Positions 951-64,000 of a DNA stretch of 64,000 nt are shown here, in pieces. Positions within the stretch are counted from its first letter, which is position 1. Each line of letters starts with the position of its first letter. The notes below the pieces were generated by a model that ran no database searches, was not told the origin of the DNA, and saw only the letters and a list, made by a program, of their open reading frames with translations. A program made the translations under genes and the position numbers. Source of the stretch: Escherichia phage ERS-1; the sequence record PP337211; one strand, given 5' to 3'.

Positions 951-959
951 AGGGCGGGG

Positions 960-7448: not shown

Positions 7449-7469
7449 CTGTGAAAGTCAGCGCCTTAC

Positions 7470-7484
7470 CCGGAAGAAGTAAAG
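7470..7484 (-). promoter_or_regulatory. Recurrent intergenic motif CTTTACTTCTTCCGG (coding-strand sense)
   Basis: Plus strand reads ccggaagaagtaaag; lies just upstream of the gene starting at 7448. Confidence 0.4.
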
Positions 7485-33000: not shown

Positions 33001-35250
33001 CGGTGATCCTGTAGGACGCCCGCCGCCCCGCCGTTGTAGCTGGAGGACGAAGGCCCGTCCGTGACCGTCGCGCCCGGGTTCGCGGCGATCCTCGCCCTGT
33101 TCTCGTCCAGTTTCGATGGCCGTGAGCTGGAAGCCCGGGTCAGGCGGTTCTCCCGTCGATCGCGGGAGGGAGGCGTGGGCGCCGCGCTCCTCGAACTCGT
33201 TTGAACCGTTCGGAGCCGTCCGGCGATAGGCGACCGTGACCTGACCGAAGCCGAAGCCGGTATTTGCGATGAGGGCGCGCCTCGCCCGCGGGTTCTGGCG
33301 GAGTGCGTGAGGCTGAGACCGCTTTCCTGCTCCGATCCTGGCCGCGAGGGTCCGGGCTCCGGGCTTGCGGCCGGACCGCCCCTGCGGCTCGACCTGGGCC
33401 GGCGCATACACCTTCGCCCCCGAAGGGACGAAGGTGCGGGCGTCCTGGGCGAGGGCGACGGAGCCGAAGGCCCAGTAAGGGACCGCGAAGGCGAAGTGAA
33501 TCAGGCTCTTGCCGGCACCAATCCCAGGAAGGTGAAGGGATGGTTGGGGCGACGGCGAGGACCTTGAGGCCCCGTCCTGCCCGAGCTCTCCCGGGCGGTG
33601 CGAGCCATTCCCAGGTCCGCCCTGGGCAGTACTGCGGGTGATCCGGGCGGTGATCCCTGCCTGCGCGAGGGCGCTGTCCGTTGCGCGAGGGTAAGGTTGC
33701 CATGGCGGGTCGATCCGGTGCGGGACGATGCTGGCGATGGTACCCGCGCGAGGTCGAAGAAGGGGCGAGGGCGCTTGCGGTCGGGGAGGAAGCGGGTGAC
33801 GGCGATGTTGGTTGTTGGTTCTCCGGTTGCGGGAGGGTGCGGCCGGACGGCGGACCGCGCCCGGCTGAAGGGCGGTTGTTTTCCTGATGGCCCGGTCGCC
33901 GTCTGCGGCGATTCCCCGGTAGCCGCCGAAGTCTCTGGTGGGGTCGGCGTCCTGGCTCCCGGCTCCGCCGGCGGACTTGCTGGTCCGGATCGGGCTGGGA
34001 CGGTAGGAGACTTGGAGGCGCCTGCCGCTGATTGCCTGGTCCTGGGGTCCGGGAGTGCGCCGTCCCGCGCCCGGGCGTCCGCTCGCCGTTGGGCGAACTC
34101 CGCCCGGAGGTCTGCGACGCTGTCGGCGGGCTTTCCCGTTCACGGTTCTGTCGTTGGCCTCAGCCAGGAGGCGTCTCCTGCTCCCGTTCCCGGGCGCGGA
34201 CCTCCTCCTCGGATTCGTCGATGGCCTCCGCCGCCTCCGCGGTCGCGTCCGCCTTCCCGGAGCCGTAGCCGAAGCCGTAGCCCGCGAGGGTGATCAGGCG
34301 ACGGTGAGGACGCCCGCCGCGGCCCGGGCCTTGGAGGAGGGGAAGCCGAACCGGCCGGACCTCGCCCTTGTCCCTTGCCCTTGATCGGCGGCGGGGCCGG
34401 AAGGAGCCGGAGCGGACTTGCCGCCCCCATTGTCCTTCCAGTTCTGGCCGTGACGGTCGCCCGAACTTTCAGGGTTGACCATCTTCGAGGCGGTTGCCTT
34501 GGTGGTGCCGGATTTCGCCGGATGCTTCTCCTTCGGAGTTGGTTGGGTTACTGAGCGGCCTTCGCCTCGTCGCGGGTATGGCCCGGGGCGACGGCTTCCC
34601 GTGGCGCGGGTGATGCCGGGGAGCCTGCTTCTCCCGGTGGTCATCGCGGGCTTCCCGTCCTTGGTCGGTGGGTGTCGTCCGCCGGGTCCTGCCCAGGACC
34701 GCCTTCTGGAGCTTGGTGTTGGCTCGGCGGTCGGCTCCTTCGCCGGATCGGTCGGGACTGCCGGTCGCCCGTCCCCTTTGGATATACCCGGCTCGCCCGG
34801 CTTCGGCTTCGTACCTCTGCCGCGACAGGCGCCGCGTCCCGGTTTTGGCCTGCCCCCGTTGGGCTGAACGTCGCCGTGTACCGGCTGTTGGCCGTCCGGC
34901 TGGCAGCCTTCTTGAAGATCCCGCTGGCCCTTCGGGCACCTCTTCAGTGCGGGTGTCCTTCCGGGTAAGCCTGCCGTTGCGTTCGAGGAAGCGGGCGTGG
35001 GGCGACCTCCTCCGCCGGAGCGGTGATGGTCTGGGCGGCCCTTCTCGAAGGCGTAGGGCTGACTGCCCCAGCGGATCGCGCGACCCGCGAGGGTTCCGGC
35101 GGAGAGGGGCGTTCGTTTGGATGATGGTGGTCCGGTACGGTTCTCCGGTAGATTAAGGGAAGGGCGGACCGATCCCGCGATGGTGAGGGTGTTACGGTGC
35201 GGCCCGCCCTTCGGGTACGCGGGCGGGGCGCCCGCCCCGTCGCGGGGCGA
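18060..35250 (-). other. Unresolved block of minus-strand coding fragments; virion/tail structural genes expected here by synteny
   Basis: Protein-like segments (e.g. …AFAVPYWAFGSVALAQDARTFVPSGAKVYAPAQVE…, …ANTGFGFGQVTVAYRRTAPNGSNEFEERG… near 33,300-33,600) but frame breaks are too frequent to delimit genes. Confidence 0.25.
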
Positions 35251-35254
35251 GCCC

Positions 35255-36320
35255 TTAGTTCCCGAGGATGCCGTCTGCGGTGGTCGAGCCCTCCCGCCGT
35301 CGCCGTCGAACTTCGTGGTGGTCGCTGGCCGTCGGAAGCCGGCGAGGTCGCCGGCGGCCCCGCGCTGTGCCCTGTTCGTGGCCGGACTTGTCCGCGTGCC
35401 GGTCACGGCTTCTCCGCTCGTTTGGAGTCCTCCGACCGGCCGCCCTTCGGGTACGACGGGGGCCTCCCCCGGAGGGCGGGACCGCCTGGATGCCCGCGGC
35501 CCTGAGTCGCGGTCGGGTCCTCGGCCATGCCGTGGTGGCCACGCCTGCGCGCGCAACCGTTGTCTGCGTACCCGCGAAGATCGTGGTGGTGTCGGCGCCG
35601 GTGCCCTTGGTCTGGTTGGTCGGGATGTAGTCGTTGCGGAAGATCGGGGTGCCCGAGTAGGCCGGACCTCCGCGCCGCTGGCTCGACAACCCTGTTGATG
35701 GACGGACCCTGGTGGTGCGGAGCAGCGCCTTGTAGCTGTGGTGTACGCGCGGGCGGCCATGTAGTTCGCCTGGCTGCCCTTGTCGGCCAGGTCCTTTGCT
35801 TGTTCTTTCCAGTGATGGCGAAGCTGACGTCGGAGCCGTTCGCGCCGGTGGTCGCTTTCTGACCGGAGGCGCACAGCTGGATCAGGCCCGCGAACTCGTT
35901 GCCCGCGCCGGTGCCGTTGATCCGCTGGTCCTGGCAACTTGCGGCTGGCGGACTTCGCCTTGGAGGCGATCTGGACCTGCGGTCTGGTCGTCGCCGTCGC
36001 CGGAGCGGGTAGCCTGGATCCTGGCTGTTCGCTTTGGCGTTGCCCGGATGGTGGTGAGGTTGGAGTTGACCTTGGCGAGGTTGGCGGCCTTACCGGTGCC
36101 CGCGCTGGAGAAGGTCGTGCCGAGCCGGCCTCACGACGTTGCCGGGTGACGTTCTCGCGGTTGTACGCGAGGCCGTCGCCTTCGATGGAGCTCGAAGGGC
36201 CGTCGAACCTTTGCCGGTTGACGGTGATGATGTTCTCGATCCCTTGCCCGTGCCCGTTCGTCCTGGGCCGCTTGGCGCTTTCGGGGGGAAGCCTAGCCTT
36301 GACGGCTTCCTTCCGGAGTC
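35255..36320 (-). CDS. Major capsid protein, HK97-fold family-like, frame-disrupted
   Basis: Segments …GIENIITVNRQRFDGPSSSIEGDGLAYNRENVT…, …NEFAGLIQLCASGQKATTGANGSDVSFAITGKN…, …GPAYSGTPIFRNDYIPTNQTKGTGADTTTIFAG… resemble the conserved C-terminal region of HK97-type capsid proteins; stop TAA at 35,255-35,257; start not found. Confidence 0.4.
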
Positions 36321-42604: not shown

Positions 42605-42736
42605 CCGAACCCGGCCTCAGGTTGGAGGAGTTTCCCTCGCCGCGAGTATAGCGTGAAGCTTGCAGTTAGGCGGGTCGCGCGCGGGGAGAGGTCAGGAGCG
42701 TGTGGCGAGGTGCTGTCTCAGGGACAAACCAAATGA

Positions 42737-42799
42737 TGTTTAACCTTAGCAGACCACCCGGTCCCAAGTAGACTACACATAACCATCGCTAAGGTTAAC
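42737..42799. repeat. Inverted pair of GTTAACCTTAGCA half-sites, 36-nt spacer containing CCAAGTAGA
   Basis: gtttaaccttagca (42,737-42,750) and gctaaggttaacc (42,787-42,799). Confidence 0.7.
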
Positions 42800-42988
42800 C
42801 TGGTAACCTGCACACAATACTCTCAGCACCTCTATCCGCTTTTTATTTAAAAACTCTTGGTTTCTTTTAAACGTTTGGCCCGATGATTTTTTGTTGCAAA
42901 GAGGTTTCCTTATTTTCTGTTGTTTCTTTTGATTCCCCTTTAACCAGTGAATTTCTAGGTGCTGGGAACTCTGTGTCCCAACTTACCA

Positions 42989-43052
42989 GGTTAACCTTAG
43001 CAATACGTAACTGAACCAAGTAGATGCTAGCAAGTCAATTGCTAAGGTTAAC
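42989..43052. repeat. Second inverted pair of GTTAACCTTAGCA half-sites, 36-nt spacer containing CCAAGTAGA
   Basis: ggttaaccttagca (42,989-43,002) and tgctaaggttaac (43,039-43,052). Confidence 0.7.
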
Positions 43053-43269
43053 AGACGACTACAAACGGAATCTACAGCGTCAATTGCGTAGTGAAGTAAG
43101 AAAGTTGAAAAAATCAGTTTACATTGACGATGATTTTGATTACAATACTTCTCAACCAGTTTAAGTTTAAATTAATCTTTTGAGGTTTGTCGGAACAATT
43201 TATATTAAACTGGTTCTTTTTAAACAGGTGCTGTCGATTCCGTTTGTAGTCGTCTGTTTAACCTTAGCA
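43040..43269. repeat. 33-bp inverted repeats flanking a 163-bp AT-rich core
   Basis: tgctaaggttaacagacgactacaaacggaatc (43,040-43,072) and its reverse complement with one extra T (43,236-43,269); the core also holds an 11-bp inverted repeat aaccagtttaa/ttaaactggtt. Confidence 0.7.
43118..43146 (+). promoter_or_regulatory. Sigma-70-like promoter candidate (TTTACA, 17-nt spacer, TACAAT) pointing into the right-hand block
   Basis: -35 at 43,118-43,123, -10 at 43,141-43,146; first plus-strand start codon about 180 nt downstream. Confidence 0.45.
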
Positions 43270-43322
43270 TATGTCTAATGTCGAAGCCACACACCACCGC
43301 CAGAGTTAAAGGATCGACTCCC

Positions 43323-43443
43323 ATGGAACACCAGCACCTTCGGCATCAAGCTGAGCAAGATCTTCCCGTGGCTGGTTCAGGAAGGAGCTGCCGGGATCAA
43401 TCGACTTCCCGTGGCGGACCTCCTCAACGCGCCCGGAAGGTGA
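43323..43443 (+). CDS. Small hypothetical protein (…NTSTFGIKLSKIFPWLVQEGAAGINRLPVADLLNAPGR*), frame break just after the ATG
   Basis: AAAGGA 9 nt upstream of ATG 43,323; high-GC3 frame to TGA 43,441-43,443. Confidence 0.3.
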
Positions 43444-43455
43444 ACAGGCCTGCGC

Positions 43456-43830
43456 ATGACCTTCGCCCAGCTCCGTCCAGGATGACCTGGCGGTGAACGG
43501 TCGCCTTGGCGGGACGTTCAACCTGCTTCGCCGCCGGAAGGATGACGAAAGCGACGGGACCGCGGGCGCCGCCGCACGGGCGACTGTCCGTGAATGCCCG
43601 AACCTCCCTGGCCGGCTCGGCATGAGTTCGCCCTTCACGTGGTGGGGCCTTCCACCTCCCGGAGGAAGGCCGGGCGTCTGGGCGTCCGGACGATGTCACC
43701 TGCCTGGAGCTGCGGCGGCGGCTCGTCACGCCTGCTCGGCGAAGGACCTGATTGGTGGGGCCTGGCTGTCTGGGTTGAAGCCCGGGACAGGTACTGTACG
43801 AACACCGAGCATCCGAGGACCCTCCGGTGA
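43456..43830 (+). CDS. Hypothetical protein, frame-disrupted (MTFAQLRPG / …DDLAVNGRLGGTFNLLRRRKDDESDGTAGAAARATVRECPNLPGRL… / …WWGLAVWVEARDRYCTNTEHPRTLR*)
   Basis: ATG at 43,456; four -1 frame breaks; stop TGA 43,828-43,830 overlaps the next start (TGATG). Confidence 0.35.
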
Positions 43831-44148
43831 TGGTGGACATGGCGGGGATCAAGCGCAAGGACGCCAAAGGAAACTACCTGGGCCGTCCTACGGGATGGGC
43901 GGGGCGAAGATGTGCCTGGGCTCGGGCTCCCGACGATGATGGCCGTGCGCGGCCCCCGCTTCCGCTGTTCGACGCGGCACCTGCCCGGAGGGTCGGCGCC
44001 TGGTCGCGGAAGGGGCGCGGAGGTTCGAGGCCGCGGGGCCGGAGGGTCAGGCCCTCCTGGACACCCTCCACCCGGGTGCCCGTTCGCATCGGAGAAGCTG
44101 GCGAAGGCTTGCGAAGCCCGGGCGAAGGCCGTGGGCGGCGTCACATGA
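43827..44148 (+). CDS. Hypothetical protein, frame-disrupted (MVDMAGIKRKDAKGNYLGRPT… / …LVAEGARRFEAAGPEGQALLDTLHPGA / …SEKLAKACEARAKAVGGVT*)
   Basis: GTG/ATG at 43,827-43,832; five -1 breaks; inverted paralog at 150-300. Confidence 0.35.
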
Positions 44149-44169
44149 CCTGAGCGGTCGCCGCTGCCG

Positions 44170-44468
44170 CTTCCCGAAGGAGGGGACGGGAACTACGACT
44201 GGGACCCGGCGACCAACCGGCTGATCGGGCTCCTCCCGCGGACCGGGTCAAGATGGCGATGGTGGCCTGCGCGGAAGCCGGACTGGGGCGTCCCGGGGCC
44301 GGCGATGAGATCGCCTTCGGCTAGGCGAGGCGGAGGAGGCCGCGGAAGCTGCCTGGTTGCGGACGTGTACGCCGCCCCAACTCCCGTCAAGGTGGACGTG
44401 GAGATTGGGCAGGCTGGGGTCATCGCTTGGGCTGGACGGGAGCCGCCTTTGCGGTTCCGCTACGGGTG
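44170..44468 (+). CDS. Hypothetical protein, frame-disrupted (…GDGNYDWDPATNRLIGLLPRTG… / …ADVYAAPTPVKVDVEIGQAGVIAWAG…)
   Basis: High-GC3 segments; paralogous to minus-strand sequence near 1-120. Confidence 0.3.
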
Positions 44469-47400
44469 ACGTGGGTGTCGGCTCACTCGTTTGCGGATCG
44501 CTGCGGGTGTACCCGCTCGACCCCGCAGGAAGTCCGGGCGAACCCCTGGAGAACGATATGCGCCGTGGCAACGACAGCGTCCGTGGACCTCGAAGTGTTG
44601 GCGAGCGTGAGAAAGGGGGCCCTGGTCGACGGCGGCGGTGAGGAGGAAGTCTGGATGCCGGGTTGGTGTCCGCGCGGTCGAGAAGAAGGGCCTGCGGCCA
44701 CCTGGACCGTCACCGAATGGATCGCCGGGTCAGAAGGGGCTGATATGAATGATCGCTGTGCGCTGGGAAGTTCTGGGCGGCGATGATCTGGGAGGCGGTC
44801 CTGGTCTGGCTCCTGGTAGGCGGTTGCCGGTGGACGCCTTCGAGTCCTTGACCTGGCCTCCTGCTGGGCGGCACTTCCTCGGAACGTTGCCCGGTTTCCG
44901 CTGAAGGAGGAGGTGAAATGAGCGAACGTCAAGACCGCCTGGGACCGCCGCGATGTTGGGCTGGCCGGTCGTCGCGGGCTGGAAGGGGTGATCAAGGTCG
45001 GAGCCGTCCTGGTCGGCCGGGCGGTGGCGCGGCTTCGACCGGGTTCAACGGCTTCCCGCCCGGTGCGATGACTCGCCGGAGCTGTACGCTGACCGCGGTG
45101 TACCTGCCGTCGGTGGCGGAGGCGTTGGCTCTTTAGGCTCGCCTGCGACGGCTTCGCTCTACATTCTTTCCCTGCTGTCCGAACTGTATGGAGGCCGCGG
45201 GGAAGGCGGGCGTGAAGCGGGTCGCCTTCCCGGTCGACTACGGGCTGCGATCCGGGGTGGGTTGCTGAGTGGAATTCGACGGTTGATGAGGCTTTGGAAG
45301 TCGCCCGCCGTTAGGGGTTGAAGCGAGGTGGGTAGATGTCTGAAGCCGGGCGCGGGACTCCCTCCGCCCCGTCATCCGGTCGCTGGACCCGGTGCGCGTG
45401 GAGAACCCCTTTCGCGCCCGGGACCCCGGATGTGAACTATGCCGGGCTGGATTGAATTGAAGTTCGCTGAACGCTGGCCGCCCTGGGCGGACCGCTTCCG
45501 AGTGGACCGACTCCACCTGCCCAGCACCTGGCTCACCCGTCGCCGGGTGCCGGGGCCGGGCCTTCCTCCTGCTGAAGGTCGGGAGACGGAGTGGTTGCTG
45601 ATTCGATGGAGCGGTGGCCGCTGCGACGCCGGGCCGGGTTCCGCGAGAACGCCTGTATGAGGTCTGCGCTGCCGTTGGATGCCTTCCAGAAATGAGGAGA
45701 TTTGTAAATGTCGCCGCGGTGAGGCGGGCGGAAGGTGAAAGCCCACCGCTACACCGCCGCTGGCAGGGTTGAACCAAATTGAGGCCGCGAAGGAGTACGG
45801 GGTCCTTGCACCGCTACCGTGATGGGAAGCGGACCGCCGCCTGGACGATGAACCGTGCCTGTCCCGGCGAGGTCCGAGCCCGAGGTCTGCTTGCTGTTCC
45901 GCCGCCGCTCGGGCAAGACCTGCGCGAAATCGCCGCCGCTCTGGGCTGACTCGCCTCGGGTTGTCCAGATGGCAGGACGGAAAGCGCCGGTTGAGCGCCT
46001 TCGTGAATATTGGGGCTTTTGAGGGGGATCGGAAATGGCGGAACTGCCGAAGTGGAGACGAGGATGGTTGACTTCCTGAAGAAGCGGTGCCGGAGGGGCC
46101 GTGGGTCCTGACGGCCATCGTCCGGACGGGAAAACGGAGACGGTACCGTCTTGTTGCCCACTGCTTAAGGCCGCGGAGTGGATCGAGGGCATCAGGGCAA
46201 GCGGGCCCCGGATACTTCCTCGCCAACCCGGCTCCGCCGGGCGATGGACGTGAAAGCCTCGAAGGAGGGATGGCCCGCCTCGCCTGGCTTCGCGTCCACC
46301 CCGCGAGCCGGGAGGACTTCGAGGAGGAGCGGGCGCGGGCGCTCAGCTGCTCCGGTCTGACCGCCGGAGCCGGCGGTCATCGTTGACTCGGGCGGGGGCT
46401 ATCCGGGCTTTTGGCGTCGAACCCGTCCGAGGCCTGGAGATTGCTGGATCGGCGGCGAAGGCTGGAGCTGGAAGCGTAGGTGTTCGGCTGGAGAAGGTGT
46501 TTCAGGCGGACCAGTTGCCGGCCACGTGGACCGCATCATGCGCCTCCCGGGCGATCAACATGCCCCGCGAAGAAGGTGGAGAAGGGTCGCCTGCCGACCC
46601 TCGCCCGTCTGCGTGGAGTGGAATGAGGCCGCTACCCCATCGAGGTTTACCCCCGCGGTTCGAGTCCAGATGGCGGAGCAGGGCCTGGCCGGGGGCCGTC
46701 CGAAGGTGAGATTGGGGCACGTCCGGAGGTTCGGGGACGGAGGAGCTGCGGAGCGGGCCCTTTAGGCGCAAGGCCATCCGTTACCCGCGCTGGCGCTGAT
46801 CGCTACTGGGCAGGGACCCGCCGGACCGACCAAGTACCCCTCCCGGTCGGAAGCCCTGTTCGGGTGCTCGCTGCGACCTCGTGCGGGCGGAGGTCCCTGA
46901 TGAACGACTTCGCGGGTGATCGCCGGCTTCGGCGAAATCGCCGCGCAGCCTGTCCGGTAGGGCCCAACTGGGAAGGCTACGCCTGCGGGGGTTCGAACGT
47001 GCCCTTGAGGAGGCGGTGCACCCTCGGCCTGGGCGGACCAGAAAGCTCGCCGTCGGTGGAGGTTGGCGGAAGTGCCGGGCGGTGAGGTCTGGGACCCGGC
47101 GATGAAGCGGTACGGGTCTGGGGGTCCTTCGAGGACTTCCGGCACGCTACCGCCGGAGGTAGTGGTTGGTCGGAGGAGGGGGTAGCCGTTGAGAAGGCCG
47201 CGGGAGCCTTCTGGATCGATCACCCGTGCTGCCCGGCACGAGACGGTTGGTTCGCCCCCGGCCTGAGGTCGAAGAAGCCTATGCCTCTGGCGCGGGTTCG
47301 CGCGCGATCCTCCCGGCGAGAGCTGCGCCCTCCCGGCACCTTCGTGAGGGCGCCGCCGGGGAACCCGGCTACCACGGTCACCTGGTCGGGTGGATGGCGC

Positions 47401-48139
47401 GGATGGTCCCGTTGCACGGCCCGGCGAGTGGCCGTGGTCCTCCGCGGTCGCCGCGGGCCGGGTTCTCTTCCTTCGCCGGTAGTCCTGGCGCGATGTTCGG
47501 GGGCGTCACGACTTCCGGCTTGCGACGAGCTGGTGGGCTCCTCAAACGCTTACCTTTGCATACCGTCCTGCTGTTCGGTGATGAGGCTTTCTTCGCCGGG
47601 AGGAGGCGAAAGCGTGCCGAGACCTCGCGACCGAAGAACGCCTGGTGATCGAGGGTAAGGGCGTGGACGCGGAAGCGGCCCCAACCATGTCCCTGGTCCT
47701 CGCCTCGAACGAAGATTGGGCGGTGCCCGCGGGTCTGGATGAACGCCGGTCTTCGTTGGTGGAGGTGGCGAGGGCCCGGTGACCCCGCCTGATTTCAGCG
47801 GTTGGGTGATGATCTGGAGGGCGCAGGACGCAGCCCGCCCCAGCCTTTCTCCCACCTATGACCTGAGCGCCTTCGAGGTTCGCCAGTTAACCGGGCGCTG
47901 CAGGACCAGAAGATCATGAGCATGTCGCCGGAAACCTGTGGATGTATGAGAAGCTGTGGGAGGGCCGGTCGCTCAAAGACCGACCAGGACTGGCGAAGCA
48001 AGGTGGTGAAGGACAGCTGCTGCCGCATGACGACGACGCAACGACCTCCGCGACCAGGGCCGGAACTTCCGCATGAGCCGCACCCGGCTTCGGCGGCTGG
48101 CTGCCCGGGCCTTCCCGGACGGCTGGCCGCGAAGTGAAA

Positions 48140-48543
48140 TGGCGGAGATCGCTTGGACGGGTCAAGGTTGGCTTCGAGGTGATGATCGAAGAAGCGCGTG
48201 GCCACCACCCGCCGCCGGAGGTGTCCGGCGCCTGGGAGAACTTTGGCGGCCCGTTCGAGTGGCCCGGGGTCCAACCTACCAGGAGCCTCTGAGGACGGCC
48301 CGAAGTCGGAGGCCGTCCCTTCCCAGGATGCCCCCATGAGTGAGCACGCTGTAAGCGACGAAGCGGGAGCTGGAGGGGGCGGGGATCGCCTACACGGTGG
48401 AGCTGGCCGGAGAGGTCAGGAGGCCGCTTCGCCGTGAGGGGGAAAGCCCCGATGGTGACGTGCTCGCGGACTTCCTCCACGTCGCGTGGCCCTCGGTCGC
48501 TCGCCTTCGCGTCTGGTGGAAGACCGCCGCGCGCTGGAATTGA
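48140..48543 (+). CDS. Hypothetical protein (…VKVGFEVMIEEARGHHPPPEVSGAWENFGGPFEWPGVQPT / …KRELEGAGIAYTVELAGEVRRPLRREGESPDGDVLADFLHVAWPSVARLRVWWKTAARWN*)
   Basis: 62 uninterrupted high-GC3 codons to TGA 48,541-48,543; upstream part in -1-shifted frames; 5' end uncertain. Confidence 0.4.
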
Positions 48544-48552
48544 CCTGAACCG

Positions 48553-48583
48553 CTTTACTTCTTCGGACTCTATCACTTCTTTG
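48553..48583 (+). promoter_or_regulatory. Recurrent motif pair CTTTACTTCTTCGG … CTATCACTTCTTTG
   Basis: Begins 10 nt after the stop at 48,541-48,543; same two-part layout as at 15,685-15,721 and 57,883-57,918. Confidence 0.45.
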
Positions 48584-48801
48584 CCAGTTTGAGAAATGAA
48601 CTGGTCCGGCCAGGTCGCGATTCGAGATTGGAAAGGAGCTGACCCTTAAATTAGGAAGAAGCCTTCCGCTGGTGCGGCTTCCCGATCCCGCGCGGTGGGG
48701 GTCCTGGTAAGTTGGGCGAGGACTCGCTGCGCGAAGCCCGTTGCGATTCGAGTTTGAAGTCGGTTCGCCTTCGGGCTATGCGTGGACGCTGACGAGGTTG
48801 T

Positions 48802-49060
48802 GTGACCGCCCGCTGGGCTGCTCCGCTCGCCTTCGCCGTCCTGCTGCTCTGGGGCCTGGCGGGGGTCTTTGCGGACTATCCTGGACCGCCCGGAGGTTTG
48901 TATCAGCTACCTGACCCGGGAGTGTGTGCGCGTGGTGAACGCGGACGGCTCCCCCGGGATCGTGTGGAGCCCTCCCGGACCGCTATGAGCGAGTGTGGGT
49001 GGAGAAGATTCTGTTTCAACCCTGAGAAAGGAGTTGCGCTACGTCTTTTTGGGTAGGGTG
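48802..49060 (+). CDS. Small protein with hydrophobic N-terminus, signal-peptide or TM-like (MTARWAAPLAFAVLLLWGLAGVFADYP…)
   Basis: GTG at 48,802 as in the ORF track; high-GC3, hydrophobic stretch. Confidence 0.35.
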
Positions 49061-49302
49061 CCGCTTCACTCAGCGGTTGTTGCCTTTGGGGTGGCTGAGG
49101 AGAACCCCGGGGCCGTCGGTTTTCGGGACCGGCCTCAAGACGCCATCGCCTCCTCCTCCGCGAGGGCTGCGCATCCCTTCACGCTGGGAGTGCAAGCTGG
49201 AGTTCGGCATCAAGCGGATCGCGTCCGGGTCGATGACTTCAACGTGGTCACGATGAACAACCGCCGTCTGGGCTTCACCACGGAGGTCGGCAAGACCTGG
49301 AA

Positions 49303-49584
49303 GTGTGGCCTTCCGCGAGCTGTATGGCGATGGACGAACGGGGCGAAGTGTTCGAGGCCTGTGAGGTCCCGGAGGTCGCCGCGGACGAAACCGTGATTGT
49401 GGTCCGGGGCGAAAGTTCCTGGATGTCTGGGCTCCCGCTCCACCCTTCCCGTCCTCCTGAACCGCTGGAGTGCGCGAGGCTGTCCGTGCCCTTCCCGGCC
49501 GTCTCGGGTTTCGCGCACGACCGGGGCGCGAGCTACCGGCTGGAGGACCCTTGGGCCGAGGTGTCCGGAAGAAGGTGGACCTGA
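49303..49584 (+). CDS. Hypothetical protein (…MAMDERGEVFEACEVPEVAADETVIVVRGE…)
   Basis: Protein-like high-GC3 segment within ORF 49303..49584. Confidence 0.3.
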   Translation: MWPSASCMAMDERGEVFEACEVPEVAADETVIVVRGESSWMSGLPLHPSRPPEPLECARLSVPFPAVSGFAHDRGASYRLEDPWAEVSGRRWT

Positions 49585-50139
49585 CGGAGGATCGGACCTT
49601 CGGAAGTGGTCCTGGACATGCGCCGCCGTCCGCCGCGGGCTCTGCGAATCCGGCAGGCTCCTCTGATCAAGAAGGCCGCCACCGCGCCCAAGGTGACCTT
49701 CAGCGTGCGCTGGAGTTCGAGGGCGTGGAGCCGTCCTAGCCCTTCCTGGCGACCGTCTCCGAACTCGCCTGCTTCGACTCCTCGCCGCCGCTCCGCGCCG
49801 AAGGCTTCGCGCCTGGACGCATGGATGGCTCCCGCCAAGGAGGCGACCCCGACGCGCCTGAGCGAGCTGGAACGGACCCGGCTGGAGAAGGCCGCGGGCT
49901 TCTGCGAGCGGCTGGGCTTCGCCGTCCAGGAGTACCCGATCCGTTGCTGTGAGTTCCTGGGCGAGGAAGTCCTGGGCCGGCGGCGAGAGGGGGATCAGGT
50001 CCGGGAGCCTGGTCCTTGATGATGGGTACACGCTGGCCGGCACGCTGATCGAGGAGTTTCGCCTTCGCCCCTCCGCTGGACCATGAAACCTGCCGCGGGT
50101 TCCTGATGGACACGTTCGTGTCCTTGGGCGGAACAGACG

Positions 50140-50406
50140 TTGCAGAACCGCTATGAGCTGGAACACGCCCTTCCGTCTCACCGGAGATGCCTGACCGCCG
50201 CCCGGGCCGTCCGCATCCACGGCCACGCCCAGAAGGCGGAGCTGGAACGCGAGTTTCAGGAGCGACTGAACGAACTCGGCGGACGCCCAGGAGCAGACCA
50301 GCCGGGCCTGGCCGGTGCTCTGAACGCCGCGGACCTCCCGATGGAGGAGCTGGGCGAGTGGGAGCTGGACGCGAGCTATTGGATGACCCCGGCTGCGCCT
50401 TCCTGA
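50140..50406 (+). CDS. Hypothetical protein (MQNRYELEHALPSHRR…AQKAELEREFQERLNELGG…)
   Basis: ORF 50140..50406; protein-like composition, one of the few segments without an obvious frame break. Confidence 0.4.
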   Translation: MQNRYELEHALPSHRRCLTAARAVRIHGHAQKAELEREFQERLNELGGRPGADQPGLAGALNAADLPMEELGEWELDASYWMTPAAPS

Positions 50407-53400
50407 GCAAGCGCGAGGCGGAGGACGCCCGCCCCTCCTTGGGCGACCTCCTCCGTCGTTGCACGGCCTCGGCTAGGCACCTCCGAGGAGCCCGACTATG
50501 ACAAGGAGCCCGATCAGAAACCGCTGCCGATCTTCGCCCTCGCCCTGCTGCCCCTCGCCCGCTCGCGGTCCGGAGGACCGCCCCCGCAGAACGCCGGGAG
50601 ACGGTCCGGCGTGCGGGTTGGCGGCTCCTCGCCTCGCCTCGCCCCTCCGTCCCGGGTCCTCCCGGCGGAGGTCGGGGCGAAGCCGGACCCGGCCCGCTTC
50701 GAGCGGCTGGAGTGCTGCCGCGACCCGCCCGACCCCTGGGTGCCGTATCGTTTGCGAACCTCGGAGAAGGGGTCAGAAGATGGAAAACCGGAAGAATTAC
50801 CCGCCTGGGCTGACGAAACCTTCGGCAGTGAAGCACCCGGTGGAAGTCGCCGCCGCGGATGAACGTGGAGGTGGCGGAGCTGGTCGCTGGCCTTGCCACC
50901 GTCGCCGCCGTCCCGGTCGGAGGATGGACCCGGAGCTGGTCCGGGAACTCCGGAAGGAGTGCGCGGACGTGTTCGGTTGCTCGCCCGTCGCGGAGAAGCT
51001 GGACGTGGACCTTTGGGTCTGTGGTGAACTTAGGGATGGGGGTGCACCGCTGCTGGGCTGGACCCGGAGCCCGTCCGGAAGATGTGCGTGGAAACCTTCC
51101 TGGACCCCGGAAGCGGGCTGAAATGGAGCTGGAAGGTTGACCTTCCCCTGCGACTCGGGGCTCTTTGCTGGGCTTCCACTCCGCCGACGTAGCCCTGAAC
51201 TGGGTCGGTCCGCGGCAGGGGATCGCCGCCGAGCGGAGGACGCCGTGGTGCCGACCTTCCGGCCGGGGCTTCTTCGAGGGCCTGACGGGCGTGAAGGTTG
51301 TACCTGGGCCGCGAGCTGCGCGCCTTCTGGAAAGCCGGACCCTGTGCGAAGGAGAACCTGGGACGTCACGATGGCGGGTGTCCAGGCCCGCCTCGGGCGC
51401 AACCCGGAGGACCCCCGCAAGTACCAGGTGACGGTCCTGGTGTATAGCCAGTTTGCCCCGGCCTGAGCCTCCACGGACATTGACCTGGCCAGTGCGCGAG
51501 CCAGCACCCCTTCCAGCCGATCGGGACGGCGGAGCCGCTTGCGCGGAGTACCTGGGGAGAAGTACGGCGACAACGACCCCGCGGCGGCCTCCCGGGATGC
51601 GGTCCGCGCCTTCGGGAGGAGTGCCGCTTGATGGCGGAACTCGCCCGCGACGTACCCGGAGAAGCTGAAGCGCCTCGAAGCCGACGTGGCCAAGCTGTCC
51701 GGTCAGAACCCGGCCCGCCGCGCCGCCTGCGCCACCCGTGGATCCCCGCGGAGAAGCTGCTGCCCGCGGGAAGTCGCGTGGCTGAATCAGCGCCTCGGGA
51801 ACTCGGAGGGCCTGCTGTGACGGACCTGGACGAAGCGGCCCTGGCCGTTCTGTTCGAGGAGTAACCGGTACGCTTTCCGGTCGCGGACTGGGAGGAGTTC
51901 CTGGTCATTGCCCGGGCGTCCTCGCCTCGGAGCGGGTCCGCTGCCGGTCGGCGCTGGGAGTATTTTGTGGAGGACTACCTGGAAGCCGATCTGCGCCGCC
52001 TTCTCCTCGCCGGCGGTTGTCGTTTGCATCGCCCGCCTGGCGATCCCGGGACCGCGACCGCTCCGCTGAAGGAACTCCCGTGGTGGAGACGCCGGGCGCT
52101 GCTCGCCCTCCTCCCGAAGCCGGATGACGAGGGTCCTGATCCGGGGCGGGAGAGGTTGATGATCGAGAGAATGGCACCCGGGCGGCGGTTTTTCGGCAAC
52201 CTACGCCCTGAAGAGGGCGAGGAGGCTGCGCGGGTGCTTGGGCCGCGGCCTTCGAGGCGATTGCCCTGATCCCCTCCGCGAAGCCGGAGGAGGTCCTGGG
52301 TTACCTGGACCTGCGCGTATGGGCGTCCCACCGCGGATGAAGTTCTGACGGTACCCGGTCGCCCGCCGGGTGGAGTTCCGCCGGGCTCGCCTCGCGCGTG
52401 CCCTTCGCGGAGATTCAACGCCAAACCGCCCGCGGGGCCTTCGAGGACTGACCATGATACGCTTTGACAAGTCGAAGCCTACGTGGGCGACTTCCTGAGC
52501 GAACTCCGCGGGACGGGGCCTGGGCGGAACATCGTGAAGGACTCGCCCGCCCAGCTCGGCCCTACCCGGAGCGGGCGCTGTGGACCGGGAGGCGGCTCGC
52601 CTTCCTGGGCGAGCCCGGGACTACCGCCTGGAGCTGCGCCGGATCGAAGGCGGGCACTGGGAGGCGATCCGCGAGGAGCGCGACCCGGACCGCTTCAACC
52701 TGCTGATGAGTCGACCTCGCGTAAGGAGGGCGACGCCATGAAACCAAGACTGAAGCGTAGCGCCCCAAACGGGATGCAGGAGCCGGAAGGCGCAGCGGGT
52801 GCCGCCGGTGAACCTTGACGCGGCGATCGCGGGGCCTCCGCCTTCTCGCCTTCGCCCTGTTCCGTCCGGGCTGTCGTGGAGGCTATCGTGGACCTGCGCG
52901 TAGACGGCCCGGTGTCCGACGGCGACGGCTCCGCGGCGACCTCCTGGGAGGAGCTGGAGCGGTCCTGGGGAGGAGACGGTGGAAGGTATGAGGGCCGGAA
53001 CTTGAAGGAGAACCGGGCTGGGAGCTGTGCTGGCATCGTCCCGGAGGTTCCCTTTGTTGGAAGAGGTGACGGGCTACGCCCGCGCCTGCCCTGGAGGCCA
53101 GAATTCCGTTTCGGGATGCGGGGTACCGAAGGAGTGAGAGATGGATCGGAGCGAGTTCTGAGCTGGCTGCGGAGCCTGTTCGGCGGACGCCCGCCGCCCC
53201 GCCGCCGGAGTCGGACTGATCGCCTGGCCCGGATGATGGCCCCGGGCTTCGAACCTTGGCTGCCCCTACCCGGAGAACTTCCCCTTGGAACTTATCGAAC
53301 TGTGGGGGCGTGGTGAAAAATGATTCGACCGGTGACCTTCTCTGGGCGACCGCCTGGGGTTCGGAGTCGCCCGCCTGGTGCACCCGCCCTCCGGCGGAGG

Positions 53401-53809
53401 CACTGCCTTGTGGCTAAGGTCGAAAACCACCGCCAGTCCTTCCGGATGTCGCGGAATGGCCGTGGCCAGTCCAGTTTGCCCCTGGGCGCGCCTGGTCGCC
53501 CCGCGTCGCCGCCTGGCCCCGCGGCATCGTCCTGATCCAGGAGCGGACGCGACCCCTGCCCCGGCGGCGAACTGCCGAAGGCAGCTGCCCGACTTCTTCA
53601 CCGACCTGAAGCCGGAGAACTTCGGCCTGATCGACGGTGGTGGCGGTGCGGCATACGCCCTCCGCCTCGCCTCCTCGAACCTGGTTGGGGAAGGCGAAGA
53701 TGAAGAAGGTGAAGAAGGACGAATGGCGACTGCCTGACAAGATCCATGCCCGATGGGAACGGAGCTGGGGCGGAAGTGTTGAGGCGACGGCACGCCGCTG
53801 CTGAGTTCG

Positions 53810-54260
53810 GTGATCCGGGCAGGCGCGGCCGACTTCGCGGACGCGATGCGCCTGGAAGTGGAGAAGAAGCGGGCGGAGGGCCGGCGGTTGGACGATCTTA
53901 CCCGGTGCCGGCTGGATTCCCTCGCGGTGATGCTGCTGGATCGCCTGGAGAAGGGCGACCCCGTGGACGGTGCCTTCGCCGGCGCCGCAGACCTACCGCG
54001 GCGACGGAGCGGACGGGTGGGCCCTCCGTCCTCGGGGCGACCTTCCGCGAATGGCTGGATCTCCGCCTGGAGGCCCGGGACATCGTTGCCTCAACCTCCA
54101 AGCCGCTTGGAAGGCCGCGGCCCGGATCGCGGAGCTGGAGGGGATCGCCGGACGCCTCGAAGGCGAGCGCAACGAGGCCCGCCGGTCGCTGGAGGAGGAG
54201 CGGGAGGTGTTCGGGCAGGAGCTGGAGGCGGAGCGGACGCCCGCCGCCGGTCGGAGCTGA
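53810..54260 (+). CDS. Hypothetical protein(s) with a coiled-coil segment (…DFADAMRLEVEKKRAEGRRLDDLTRCRLDSLAVMLLDRLEKGDP… / …AARIAELEGIAGRLEGERNEARRSLEEEREVFGQELEAER…)
   Basis: Two high-GC3 segments in frames offset by -1. Confidence 0.3.
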
Positions 54261-54712
54261 ACCTGGCCCGTGCCGGAGGGGTTCACCGCGTGACGGAAGG
54301 CGAACCGCCGCTGCCGGGAGTGCGGGCGAGGTCGGCGCAGCGGGTCGGAGGTCGGCCGGGCGGTACCGGATCGCCGCGGACCGCGCCTTGACCTGGGCGA
54401 ACCCCGCGACCCCTATCAATTCCGCCGATGGCCCGCCGGAAACCCCGCCGCGGGGAGTACGTCTGCCGCGGGGCCTATCCGGTTCCCGCACCGCTTCGCA
54501 GGCGGTCGCTGCTCGGGCTACTTCATCGCCGTGGAGCAGCGGAGTTGGCACTAGGGGACCGGCGACTGCCGCCTACTGTAACTGCCTCAACCGGACGGAG
54601 GCCGTGCCCACTGCGAAGTGGTGGAGGGCGGCGAGTCGGTCCAGGAATGCCCCGTGTGGCAAGAGTTTGTACGATTCAATGAGATCAAACTGAAGAAGGA
54701 GAAGTGAGATGA

Positions 54713-55030
54713 GTGATGACAACACGATGGACAGGCGTGATGATCGACCTGGAGACGATGGCGACCGGCCCCAGCGCCGGGGTCGTTTGTCGGGGCCATC
54801 CGTCGTTCAACTGCCGAACCGGATTGGTGAAGCCGGACCTGTTCGAGGTGGACGTGGACCTTCACGCCGACGCTGGGCGGCGAGGTCGATGCTTCCGGCG
54901 GTCGGTCTGGCGGGACCAGGTGGACCCTGCCCAGCGCTGGCCGAAGGCGATGCGCTCCGCGCTGACCGACCTCGCCCTCCTGGTCGGGGTACCCGGACCG
55001 AAGCGGGTCTGGGCCGGGGCTGTCCTTTGA
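54713..55030 (+). CDS. Small protein with N-terminal 'GVMIDLET' motif; possible RNase H-like or DEDD-type nuclease (speculative)
   Basis: GAAGGAG SD upstream of ATG 54,709 / GTG 54,713; uninterrupted high-GC3 frame to TGA about 55,028; the 'IDLET' Asp-x-Glu resembles exonuclease motif I. Confidence 0.3.
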   Translation: MMTTRWTGVMIDLETMATGPSAGVVCRGHPSFNCRTGLVKPDLFEVDVDLHADAGRRGRCFRRSVWRDQVDPAQRWPKAMRSALTDLALLVGVPGPKRVWAGAVL

Positions 55031-57244
55031 CGTTGCCATCTAGGGTTACTATCGCCGGCGGGCGTCCCGATCCCCTGGCATACTCCGCGCTGATGCTGAC
55101 ACCCGAACCGTGTATGACCTGGCGAAGGAGCGGGGCTGGTCGAAGCCGGAGGGGGAACGGGGCCGTTCTGCCGCCTGGAGGACTGCCGCTGCCGTACCCT
55201 TGCCGTCCATCAGCGCCCTGAACGTCCTCCGGGGCAGCCTGAAGGAGAACCCGGTAATTGGCTGACGAATCGACTTGAAGGATGGAATTCCCTTCCCCCC
55301 TTGCGGACCGCGAAGTGGCCCGGATCGCGGAGGAGGCGGCGACACACCGCCCGGGAGCCGGCGACTGTGACCTGTGTGGCGAATGGAGCGGGAGGCTGGT
55401 GGAGGAGTCTGTGCGCCCTGTCGGACCGCCCGGGCTTTGCCGGTGAATCGAAGAAGTTGTATGAGGGCTCTACTTCTTGCAGGCCCCCCGCCACTCTCCT
55501 TCGTTGCAGGTACCGGCCTGAAAATGGAGAACGGCGATGACCTGGATTTCCGCCTCCAACCCGACACCCGCGCCACTGCCCCGCTTCGTGGCCGGTTTCA
55601 CTGTCCTCGCCTCTGGCGGTAGCCCTCCGCGACCCTCGGCTACGCCTTCAGCCGCTAGAGCGTGGTTCCTGGCCTGGTCCGGCGACTCTGCATGGCATGC
55701 TGGAGGATGTACCGTGAAGGACGTGTACTGGAACCTGGCCCACTACCCCCGTCTGGAAGGCTCGGGTGCCCCCGCCCTCGCCCTCCGAAGTTCCTGGCGT
55801 CATCCCCGACCGTCGCCCGAATTGAAGCCCTGGGTGGAGTTCCGCGCCCCGAAGGCTGCGCCGGTGGTGAAGGCGGGAGCGCTTCTGCCAGGGGCGCCGG
55901 GTGCCCGCCCCGCGCCCGGGCTGGCCAGTCCTGATGGAGCTGGCAAGCCCTGGTCCGCCGCTGCTCCATGGTCCAGCCCCGCGAAAGTCCGGTCGGCGTA
56001 GGAAGGACGGAACCGATCCTCGCCGGCGAGCGCCTGGGCTCGCCGCGGGCCTTCGACCACCACCCGGGTTGAAGGAGCCCGCGTGTATCTGGAAGGATGA
56101 GCCGCCGCTGGAGGGAAAGGCCCGAGGAAGATGGAAGCGAGTACCAGAAGCGGGAGGGCTCCGGCCCTCCCCCCCGCGGGTCGAAAAAAGTTGTCTGCTG
56201 GGCTGACCTTCTTCGGGTTGGGTCACTTTTTGTTAGGCCGTAGAAATGGAGAACTGAAATCAGCCGACTCCCGCCCAGGTCGCTGCCCGCGAACTGATCG
56301 CAGGCTGGGGCTCGCCTCGCTGGGCGATGTCCGGGTTGTCAAGCCGCTGACCCTCCCGGCCGGAGTACCTCCGCGGCCCGCTCCTTCGCCGGTGACCGCG
56401 CGATCCGCCGGATCGGTGCCGGTCCTCCGCGGGACGTCCCCCTGGCAGCTGATCGGCTTCGGACCTCGCGGAGGTCGCCGGGCCCTCTGGAAGTCGGCTG
56501 CCGTTGACCGGGAGGGCCTGGCTCTCCCCCTCCCGGAGAAGGAGCCCCTTGTGAACCGGTGGCCGCCTTCCCCACCCCCTCCCCTCGTCCCCACTCCTGT
56601 TCATCGGAGTCGGGGAGCTGGGGCTGCTCTTCACCCTCCGCGAGACGGAGCTGAAGGCCGTCCCGGGTCCTGGCCCACGGACGCGGTGGTGAATGGCGTG
56701 TATCGGGGTCCTCCGAGGTCCGTGCTCCCGTGAAGAACCTGAGCCGGGACCGACGAAGCCTTCGAGAAGGCCCGGAAGCCTCTGCAGCGTATGGGCCGAG
56801 CCGGTGACCTCCCGCGACTCCCTGCGCGAGGAAATGAACGCGATTCACCGCGTGACGCTGCGGAGCTGGAGCGCCGGGAGCGCGAGCGGAAGGAGCGCGA
56901 GGACCGCCTGGGCCGCGGAACGGGCCGCGGAGGAGGAGGAGAAGCGCCTGTACCTTCCTGGGCTGGAAGTTTGCCTTCGGACCTACGCGTGGCGAGTTCC
57001 CAGGCCCCGCGGGCTGGCCTCCGCCGGTCGATCCAGCCTCCGGACTTCGAGGAAGGTGGCCTGATGCGCCTGACCGCCCGTGAGGTCGCCCGCCGGGTCC
57101 CTGTCCTCGCCCGCCGAAGCCGAAGCCCGACCTGTACGTGGGCGAGCCGAGAGTGCATCACCTTCGACGTGACCGTGGTGCGCCGTACCCTTGCGCCCGT
57201 GACGCCTGGAACGGCTACGGTATCGAGACGGTCCAGGCGTTGCG

Positions 57245-57603
57245 ATGATCGACCGCGCGACCGGGGCCTGCCTCGTGTCCAAGTCCGGGGCCTTCTACGC
57301 GGAGGAAGGCGAGGAGCTGAAGATCAAGGCCACCGTGAAGGAGCACGCGGAGCACCGCGGCCAGGCCCAGACCGTTGTCCAGCGGGTCGCGGTGCTGGAG
57401 GACTACCGGATGCGCCGGGAACCTCTCAGCTCGCGGTTGTTCGGAGGGCGAGCTGTACGCCGCCTGCACCAGGACCCCCTCACCGGGGCTCTTACGCAGT
57501 GGCCTTTGCCGGAGCCCTCGGGGAGGCCCGGCCGTCGCCCTCGTTGACTGGACTCGCTGAAGTGGACGGGTCACCTGCCCGGGCTTACCGCGTGGGTGAT
57601 TAA
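57245..57603 (+). CDS. Hypothetical protein (MIDRATGACLVSKSGAFYAEEGEELKIKATVKEHAEHRGQAQTVVQRVAVLEDYRMRRE…)
   Basis: ORF 57245..57547; long high-GC3 segment; 3' end uncertain. Confidence 0.4.
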
Positions 57604-57876
57604 GCTTCGCGCTTGGCGGACGCCCTCGTGCGATCCTTCGGAGCTGACCGGGCGTTCCGCGCGTCGGGCGATGAGTTCGCCGTTATGGGTGATAGCCGTG
57701 AACGTCTGCCCGGGCTCGCTTCTCCGCGCGAGGGTCCGGGTTTCTGCTTCGGACGGGGATCGGAGGCGGCGGAGGCGGACGGCGACCTGGCGCGTCGAGG
57801 GGCGGAGGGGGAGCGGTCCGGCCTTCGGGGCCGCGCGAGGGCTCCTCGACCGCCTTGGGGTCGATCATCGACCTCC

Positions 57877-57918
57877 GGGGGGCTTTACTTCTTCGGAGGC
57901 CCCCCGTCACACTTCTTT
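57877..57918 (+). promoter_or_regulatory. Recurrent motif inside a G6/C6 hairpin (GGGGGG-CTTTACTTCTTCGGAGG-CCCCCC), followed by CACACTTCTTTG
   Basis: Stem 57,877-57,882 / 57,900-57,905 with a 17-nt loop carrying the motif; could be a terminator, a promoter element, or both. Confidence 0.4.
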
Positions 57919-58106
57919 GTCGGGCGGTCCGGACCCGGAGAACGGCTGCCGGGGCGGCTGGGCATTTACTGTCTCCCCTGTCCAGGCCACGGACCTGCGC
58001 CTCCAAAGTTCTCCCGACCTTCTTTCGGGCGTGACTTCCTCCGGGTCCAAACGGCCCTGGACCGCCTCCTTAGATGGCGGAGGAGTAGGACGGTGCGCAC
58101 TGGTTC

Positions 58107-58360
58107 ATGTACAAGCTGTCCAACGGTGCGACTGACCTGGCCCCGGCGATCACCGACCGGAAGCTGCGACTGACCGTGGACACCAACGGCTACGGGCGAG
58201 GTCAGCGGAGACGCCGCGGGCCTGATCGCCTGCCTGTTCGTGTCAACGCCCTCGCTGGAATACCCGCAGCGCCAGGACTACGTGGACCTGTCTACAAGCC
58301 GCGCGACTTCGCCTTCGACCGCCGCAGGCTGAGGAAATCACCGCTGCCTTCGACCTGATA
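58107..58360 (+). CDS. Hypothetical protein (MYKLSNGATDLAPAITDRKLRLTVDTNGYG / EVSGDAAGLIACLFVSTPSLEYPQRQDYVDL…)
   Basis: ATG at 58,107; two high-GC3 segments separated by a -1 shift. Confidence 0.35.
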
Positions 58361-60896: not shown

Positions 60897-60943
60897 TAAG
60901 GTAAGTAAGTTAAGTAAGTTAAGTATCTATCTATCTATCTATC
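60897..60943. repeat. Compound microsatellite (TAAGT/TAAGTTAAG)n followed by (ATCT)5
   Basis: ctaaggtaagtaagttaagtaagttaagtatctatctatctatctata, in an AT-rich intergenic stretch upstream of the packaging-like operon. Confidence 0.7.
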
Positions 60944-60974
60944 TATAAAGGGCTGTTTTATATGGCCTTTTTGC

Positions 60975-60992
60975 CCGCTTGACTTTTTACTT
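60975..60992 (+). promoter_or_regulatory. Degenerate copy of the recurrent motif (CTTTTTACTTTTTCGG)
   Basis: Sequence similarity to CTTTACTTCTTCGG; about 240 nt upstream of the 61,229 start. Confidence 0.3.
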
Positions 60993-61228
60993 TTTCGGAC
61001 GTGGAAGTGAAGCGCGACCCCTCGAACCTAAGCGGAGGACGCCGCGTGCCTGCTTGGGTCTGTTGCCCGTCGCTCCCGCGCCTCCCCCGCGGGCGAGCGC
61101 GACCCGCCCTTGGCGAACGCAGGCTTCGCCAGACTCGCGGCGAGGATGTCCTTGGGCGTGAGGCCGGGACGGATCGCCGCGTGATGCGCGATTGACGGGC
61201 GGTGCTGCCCAAGGGGGAGGTGATGTGC

Positions 61229-61551
61229 CCATTGAGAAACTGAAGCCGAAGCCGATGGTGCCCTTGCCCTTGGATGGAAGCAGTACCTGGAGTTGTTCCG
61301 CACGTCCCGACCTGGGTGGGTGGAAGTACCGTGCGCGGAGGCGTGGGCGTCTCCGGCTCCGCCGTTCCACTATGCCGTTGAAGAATGACCCGGAGTTTGC
61401 CCTGGCTCTGCAGGACGCCCGCCAAGCGTGGATTGATGAGATCCTGTTGCGCGGCCCTGAAGCGGGCGCGGGACGGCGCGGCAGCGCCCGATCGGTCGGG
61501 GAAGTTCAAGGACGAAATTATTGGATGAGCGGGTGTACTGTGATTCGCTGA
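61229..61551 (+). CDS. Small protein upstream of the P-loop gene, terminase small subunit position (…MPLKNDPEFALALQDARQAWIDEILLRGPEAG…)
   Basis: AAGGGGGAGG SD before GTG at about 61,229; stop TGA 61,549-61,551 overlaps the next ATG (TGATG). Confidence 0.4.
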
Positions 61552-63178: not shown

Positions 63179-63189
63179 GCTGCGTGGTG

Positions 63190-64000
63190 CGGTGGTGGCC
63201 CGCAGAGGCTCGGCCGGGTCCTCGCCTTCGGGCGAGAATCCGCGAACCTGGAGAACCGACGGCCGGCGAGACGGCAGCCCTGCCGACCTGCGGGGCGTAT
63301 TAACCGCGCTCCCGCGCTGGCCCACGCTCCAGACGCCGCCTGGGCGGGACCGAAGGGCGCGCGAGGCGGGCGAGACGTACCTACCCCGCCCTCGGAGGAG
63401 ACGGCAGGGTGGGCTATCGGGAGCGCCTGGCCTCCGCCGCTCCTCCTCGGCGGTTGAACCTGGGCGCCTGGACCTGCCCTGCAGCGGAGCCCTTTGCCAG
63501 CCGATCAAGCCGGCCAGGACGTGCCCGGAGGCGATCCAGGAGATGATCCTGCCTGACGTGGACCTCCTGGGGCTGCCCACGCGTTCGCCCGTCCTGTGGT
63601 TCCGCCAGCCTATCCGGTGAGGCCCTGGCCTCCTCGTCCAGACCGCCTCGCCCGGCCCCGCGGAGGATGGCCTACCCGGACCTGGCGGATGACCGCCGGG
63701 AGGGCCTGCGCCCTGACTGGGTGATGATCCAAGCCGGAGGCGCCCGCTGTTGGCCCGGTCGGAGGTGATCAAATGGGGCCCGAGTCCTCTGCGTGCTGCT
63801 GTCCAAGTTACGAGGCGGAGGCAGGACGGCTTCGCGCAGGCTTGGGAGCGCTGTCCGCGTCCTGGAGCTGGGCCTTGTCCCGGCTCTGGCAGCCGGTGAG
63901 AAGTTGGTGGTCCCGCAAGGAGGAGTGGGTGCTGGCGGATGAGCGGGCCATGGGGCTGAACCACGTCCCTGTGGTTGCCTTTACGCACCTGAGCTAAACC
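63190..64000 (+). CDS. Hypothetical protein, partial; portal position by synteny; continues past the window
   Basis: Plus-strand high-GC3 segments after the TAA at 63,176-63,178; no motif recognised. Confidence 0.2.

Follow-up and report, generated by a model that had tools for sequence, protein, structure and literature searches.

The window analysed here, a stretch of 64,000 nucleotides from the sequence record of Escherichia phage ERS-1 (PP337211), poses a double question at positions 35255-36320: which gene lies there, and why does it look broken? A sequence-only reading had recognized an HK97-type major capsid protein signature in this interval and had suspected frameshifts, since it called for a frameshift-corrected translation. 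We conclude with high confidence that the minus strand from 36300 to 35255 is the major capsid protein gene of a Pseudomonas aeruginosa siphovirus of the YuA/M6/PAE1 kind, and that the gene looks broken only because the window consists of uncorrected composite reads. The signature itself was borne out by orthology to Yuavirus genes, by Pfam and PHROG matches of an intact orthologue and by Foldseek comparison of a model of that orthologue. What could not be seen from the letters is that read errors cause the frameshifts and that the phage belongs to an already described genus.

The garbled Yuavirus major capsid (head) protein gene was placed at 35255..36300 on the minus strand, in good agreement with the proposed interval, by nucleotide alignments to the PAE1 and Epa38 genes, tblastn and PHROG 212. 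In the alignments to both genes the stop codon TAA falls at 35257-35255, and the start codon at 36300-36298 is called AAG where ATG is expected; the gene measures 1046 nt in the window versus 933 nt in Epa38 and PAE1. The peptide on which the signature had been based, GPAYSGTPIFRNDYIPTNQTKGTGADTTTIFAG (about 35668-35570, minus strand), aligns to positions 217-249 in the major head proteins of PAE1 and Epa38 (PAYSGTPIFRNDYIPTNQTKGTGTN[T/A]TTIFAG), a part of the 310-aa capsid protein that is made of beta strands in the structural model described below. The upstream segments that had been counted toward the same protein, in other frames, likewise match it (ENIITVNR..., INGTGAGNEFAGLIQLCASGQKATTGANGS...). 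Searched against the window by tblastn, the PAE1 major head protein gave E = 8e-34 over two frames and, because of this E-value, the sequence match is judged to be far beyond chance. A guided translation, read codon by codon along the alignment, had 199 of 271 residues in common with the Epa38 capsid protein (73%, errors included).

A 3.2 kb query around the capsid region found matches in 136 phage records, the best of them Yuavirus Pseudomonas phages (PAE1, Epa38, AN14 and YuA among others). More than 50 Yuavirus genomes with an annotated capsid gene matched 91-95% of the query at a raw nucleotide identity of 82-84%, and the annotations beneath the match name a scaffolding protein and lysis genes besides the major capsid or major head protein. 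Segments of the window gave 81-84% raw identity over 80-98% of their length against many Yuavirus genomes, and raw identity to known members of the genus stood at about 83%. Judged by this genome-wide similarity and by collinearity, the phage belongs to the genus Yuavirus (Mesyanzhinovviridae).

Gene coordinates around the capsid gene were obtained by carrying the PAE1 annotation onto the window through the window-PAE1 alignment. All of the following genes lie on the minus strand: the terminase small subunit (TerS, first copy, 42554-42056), the terminase large subunit (TerL, first copy, 42056 to about 40580), the portal protein gene (PAE1 orf4 orthologue, 40531-39089), a head morphogenesis protein gene (PAE1 orf7 orthologue, 38451-37298), the head scaffolding protein gene (PAE1 orf8 orthologue by map and annotation, 37233-36484), the capsid gene, a small orf11 homologue (35132-34548) and, downstream of 34548, spanin, holin, endolysin and head-tail adaptor. 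The order is thus TerS, TerL, portal, head morphogenesis, scaffold and capsid, then lysis and head-tail genes, which is the tailed-phage morphogenesis order that had been proposed; the capsid gene starts 5.8 kb downstream of the TerL start, close to the 6 kb from a terminase-like gene given in the sequence-only reading. By comparison with PAE1, this gene therefore has the standard head-module position (terminase, portal, scaffold, capsid). GC-rich hairpins 3' of it (35150..35254, minus strand) are the counterpart of the terminator annotated after YuA gp56, and the T-run of this terminator is degraded in the window. Compared with PAE1, the window phage is without the HNH endonuclease orf3 (40531-40647) and orf10 (35146-35485), the latter being missing from Epa38 as well, and is divergent near orf48-50 (4413-5479); these differences are the usual mobile-endonuclease mosaicism among Yuaviruses.

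The window copy of the capsid gene was too damaged for direct testing of family and fold, and the intact orthologue (Epa38 capsid protein, 310 aa) was tested instead, with its link to the window checked. Among Pfam families the orthologue matched PF17236 (SU10_MCP) best, at 32.8 bits against a gathering cut-off of 24.1, and PF05065 (Phage_capsid) at 24.5 bits, barely over the cut-off of 24.2; a weak SrpI-like match fell under its own cut-off. By these profiles the intact orthologue belongs among the HK97-fold capsid families. The profile search that had been suggested for a corrected translation had a divided outcome: PHROG 212 ('major head protein') matched the window's guided translation at 5e-41 (6e-83 with the orthologue), while a Pfam scan of the same translation gave no match. 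Nor did a Pfam scan of the three longest in-frame capsid fragments, which are too short, return anything. A database search with the guided translation collected 1281 relatives, the closest of which, P0001, shares 99% identity with the Epa38 capsid protein.

Searches of the Protein Data Bank with a single capsid sequence and with a shallow 24-sequence profile gave no match. A diverse family profile of 97 sequences matched, among solved structures, the phage capsid 8cjz (1e-15), family 2 encapsulins (SrpI at 6e-15), BPP-1, epsilon15 and HK97 gp5 (1e-4). A first AlphaFold run, for which the alignment was 82-95% identical to the query, reached a pLDDT of 35 and was discarded; the AF2 model of P0001 computed with the 97-relative alignment reached a pLDDT of 90.7 and a pTM of 0.83. 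In this model a beta hairpin spans residues 76-94 and a long helix residues 108-130; from the secondary structure we read the two as the E-loop and the spine helix. Foldseek matched it to HK97 (1ohg_A) with E = 3e-14 and a target-normalised TM of 0.70, and also to T5, SU10 and gene-transfer-agent capsids and to encapsulins (TM up to 0.79). The model indicates an HK97 fold, for the orthologue rather than for the garbled window sequence itself. The narrower HK97 gp5-type assembly does not describe this protein of 310 aa, which starts directly with the N-arm, has no delta domain and has a separate scaffolding gene upstream; between its portal and capsid genes, the PAE1 head module bears no annotation of a prohead protease.

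The same searches bear on whether the gene might encode the shell of a family 2 encapsulin rather than a virus capsid. The top Foldseek matches are indeed family 2A and 2B encapsulins (TM 0.71-0.79), and the SrpI matches, by the 97-sequence profile at 6e-15 and weakly by Pfam, point the same way; the HK97 fold is common to encapsulins and phage capsids, however, so that such a likeness is expected. The gene follows the terminase, portal and scaffolding genes and precedes those for lysis and head-tail functions, it does not lie in a cellular cargo operon, the 62 kb genome is collinear with those of cultured, plaque-forming phages, and YuA gp56 is annotated as a phage structural protein. We consider an encapsulin hardly conceivable here. 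As a capsid protein, the product is predicted to be the main component of the virion shell, by analogy with YuA gp56 ('major structural phage protein'). Going by its family, the 310-aa HK97-fold protein would co-assemble on the portal with the scaffolding protein, the product of a separate gene, into a procapsid that the terminase would then fill with DNA.

The second part of the question concerns the state of the gene. No intact capsid ORF is present in the window, every frame being interrupted, as had been suspected: the 815 nt that align to the reference include 66 gap columns and change frame about 30 times. The ORFs listed for the region are Arg- and Pro-rich nonsense, typical of wrong frames in DNA of 69% G+C. 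Every other gene in the window is broken in the same manner. Programmed frameshifting was considered for the broken capsid gene and rejected.

The make-up of the window bears directly on this. Positions 1-42662 correspond to the PAE1 minus strand from 46919 down to 29, and positions 43340-63986 to the PAE1 plus strand from 45949 to 62181 and then from 1 to 3614. The latter part is a second Yuavirus read in the opposite genome orientation (43340..63986, plus strand), with a second terminase copy at 61223 to about 63143 and no second capsid gene; the capsid gene occurs once only in the window. Running down to about position 29, the first read stops just before the beginning of the PAE1 record. 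The second read crosses the PAE1 end-to-start junction without a break (61094 to 61097), and the molecule was therefore a concatemer, a joined end or a permuted genome.

Between the two long reads lies a junction (42711..43339, no strand assigned), delimited by sequence reading and motif counts, that holds barcode flanks, barcodes and two short inserts. Its repeat unit reads AAGGTTAA, 24 nt, CAGCACCT ... AGGTGCTG, 24 nt, TTAACCTTAGCAAT and ACGTAACTGAAC..., and TTAACCTTAGCAAT occurs 5 times versus 0.03 expected by chance. By the adapter sequences that the manufacturer has published, we take these units to be Oxford Nanopore native-barcode flanks; the 24-mers presumably represent barcodes, resembling NB08, NB03 and NB07, with NB02 clear. 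The NB02 sequence is found twice, once exactly and once with a single mismatch. Because four different barcodes lie inside it, the window is at least four barcoded single-molecule reads run together and not an assembled genome; that the reads are of nanopore type, we infer. The two Yuavirus copies carry different barcodes. One short insert is AT-rich (about 126 nt, 42841-42966, between barcode-03-like flanks) and had no match in the phage collection at blastn sensitivity. The other, a barcode-02 short read of about 150 nt, is T4-like: 79 nt (43078-43156) are identical to a Tequatrovirus hypothetical protein gene, after which the sequence diverges, and other phages were therefore present in the same sequencing run. 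Adapter sequence adjoining the long reads is noisier than usual.

Genome-wide error statistics were calculated on the window minus strand with PAE1 as the reference. Error rates by base were 38% for T, 17% for A and G and 8% for C, and depended strongly on the following base: the T of 5'-TG-3' was miscalled at a rate of 0.78 and T before C at 0.11, compared with 0.066 at positions at least 8 nt from any TG. The error maximum coincides with the T of TG and falls off within about 5 nt in either direction, and the wider sequence context is without effect. Against Yuavirus references, mismatch away from TG was about 5-6%, and identity at least 6 nt from TG was about 94-95%. The capsid gene itself follows this pattern, with 37 of 46 TG thymines wrong versus 8 of 78 other T; of its 30 deleted bases, 25 are no more than 2 nt away from a TG. 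On the window minus strand, A shows 14% error far from TG, mostly A to G, versus 5-6% for C, G and T.

The duplicated terminase region allows two reads of the same genes to be set side by side, as an internal control that presupposes nothing about divergence. The two copies differ at about 35% of columns, and of their 123 and 106 deleted bases only 7 are in common. In PAE1 plus-strand coordinates one copy errs at the T of TG (0.79) and the other at the A of CA (0.78); in both, the errors are at the T of TG on the strand shown as the window minus strand. About 3% of terminase columns differ from PAE1 in both reads, which is likely to be true divergence from PAE1. Since so few deletions are shared and the errors are specific to TG, the frame changes in the window are artefacts. 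For the capsid gene, which is present once only, we infer read errors from the error signature and the duplicated terminase region.

A real pseudogene, that is, a decaying prophage or defective element with true frameshifts in its capsid gene, would also leave the region with no intact ORF and all frames interrupted. It would not account for all genes of the window being broken alike, for adapters and barcodes inside the window, or for terminase copies that each have more than 100 deletions, only 7 of them in common, and whose TG errors fall on opposite genome strands; true mutations would have no preference for the presented strand or for one dinucleotide. We hold this explanation to be very unlikely. 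As raw composite read data with adapters inside, the window is unfit for mining genes, frameshifts or pseudogenes, and any 'broken gene' result from it is an artefact.

The TG-specific errors are most likely to arise from a basecaller failing on a hypermodified T in TG. In phage M6, about 30% of the T is present as 5-NedU (5-(2-aminoethyl)uridine); the same modification, in a motif that was then unknown, was predicted for PAE1, YuA and their relatives (PMC5889632). Restriction-resistant sites of M6 are enriched for TG and TC (PMC6449724). The biosynthetic genes of the pathway are those for dUMP hydroxymethylase, 5-hmdU DNA kinase, amino acid:DNA transferase, PLP enzyme and radical-SAM enzyme. 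The window aligns, with garbled frames, over candidate genes of this pathway in PAE1: orf43-orf47 correspond to 5479..9456 (minus strand), two of them bearing the annotations 'threonine dehydratase' and 'DNA repair photolyase', and on the PAE1 map a thymidylate-synthase-like gene (orf53, a dUMP hydroxymethylase in this group) lies at 2881-3885. The M6 counterparts of the former two are the PLP enzyme and the radical-SAM enzyme of thymidine hypermodification (PMC5889632, PMC8989533). Mechanistically, a bulky hypermodified T in TG would be misread by a basecaller trained on ordinary DNA, giving substitutions and deletions on the strand that was read, taken to be the window minus strand, and these, in uncorrected reads, would make the capsid gene look broken.

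TG makes up 33.4% of all T in this comparison, and the agreement of this third with the approximately 30% of T modified in M6 supports modification as the cause. In the DNA of the composite read that is not from a Yuavirus, TG is read correctly: in the T4-like insert, whose 79 exact nt contain 11 TG over the two strands, in the AGGTGCTG flanks and in the barcodes. M6-type modified thymidine is a candidate constituent of the window DNA; its support is indirect, in that both genome strands show the TG miscalls and other DNA of the composite read does not. Read direction could not be decided from the adapters: their layout is unchanged by reverse complementation, and every junction has one noisy side. 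Errors at C in the T4-like insert were uninformative on this point (79 nt exact, then divergence). Because the layout is symmetric and the read strand is not fixed by it, the choice of T over the complementary A as the affected base would rest on the known chemistry of this phage group.

The capsid gene could also be that of a Yuavirus garbled by a general defect of the run or the basecaller, or by artificial corruption, with no role for modification. A baseline error of about 6% does persist away from TG, A is error-prone even far from TG, and the adapter beside the long reads is noisy, all of which would suit a general defect. Such a defect should have struck TG equally in the adapter flanks and the T4-like insert, where it is called correctly within one and the same composite read, and the shape of the signal, a peak on the T of TG with a decay over about 5 nt, is what a pore that senses a few neighbouring bases at once should give at a single altered base. 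With 33% of T affected, the proportion agrees with the 30% measured in M6 (PMC5889632), and independent restriction data point to TG (PMC6449724). On balance we regard a defect of this general kind as unlikely and prefer hypermodified T in TG as the source of the errors.

One stretch of the gene fits this account less well. The C-terminal part (35280..35484, minus strand) is unalignable save for short anchors (GTCGGAGGACTCC and the final ADGIL-N*), and 35484-35280 is about 110 nt longer than in known Yuavirus records, none of the 54 matching records having the extra sequence. The additional bases contain a 16-nt copy (CGTACCCGAAGGGCGG) of a sequence that recurs downstream at 35219-35204. Simple miscalling gives no obvious explanation for about 110 extra bases, which counts against the artefact account. 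The reference counterpart of this stretch is unusually rich in TG, with about 11 of them in 97 nt, and over-calling by the basecaller during a stall in such a stretch is a plausible origin; the extra bases may also be a real insertion. The true protein sequence of the window phage is not recoverable from one read.

As a capsid gene, the locus adds nothing: it is the already known, ordinary major head protein gene of Yuavirus, with the expected HK97 fold, in the standard place, in a well-sampled genus of Pseudomonas phages. The sole point of wider interest is the TG-specific miscalling, and this is partly anticipated in the literature. We think it probable that essentially every T in 5'-TG-3' is modified, on both strands and in any context, and that T before C, A or T largely is not. 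If this is true, the specificity of the pathway would be the plain dinucleotide TG, presumably set by the 5-hmdU DNA kinase; the published inference of 'TG or TC' would be sharpened and the approximately 30% of modified T in M6 accounted for. TG miscalls would then offer a cheap, sequence-resolved readout of hypermodification sites, of possible interest to the field of phage DNA modification.

Among known systems, the Yuavirus major head proteins (YuA gp56, PAE1 Orf9 YP_009215700, Epa38 QIQ65840; Mesyanzhinovviridae) are the same gene at the same genomic position and in the same PHROG; the window copy differs from them in being garbled and in its C-terminal 200 nt, which fit no reference. HK97 gp5 (PDB 1OHG, 2FS3), the founding member of the fold, shares the fold at about 16% identity to the window orthologue, whereas the Yuavirus protein has only 310 aa, is without the N-terminal delta domain and is served by a separate scaffolding gene upstream. 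The SU10 major capsid protein (PF17236; PDB 7Z48) compares with the P0001 model at a TM of 0.65 when query-normalised and 0.59 when target-normalised, but it comes from an unrelated phage, the relationship is distant and the protein is longer (346 residues in the solved chain). The family 2 encapsulins (SrpI 6X8M, Mmp1 8WOL) are the closest solved structures by TM-score (0.71-0.79) and profile E-value; these are cellular nanocompartments with cargo operons, in contrast to the capsid gene of the window, which sits in a complete tailed-phage morphogenesis module.
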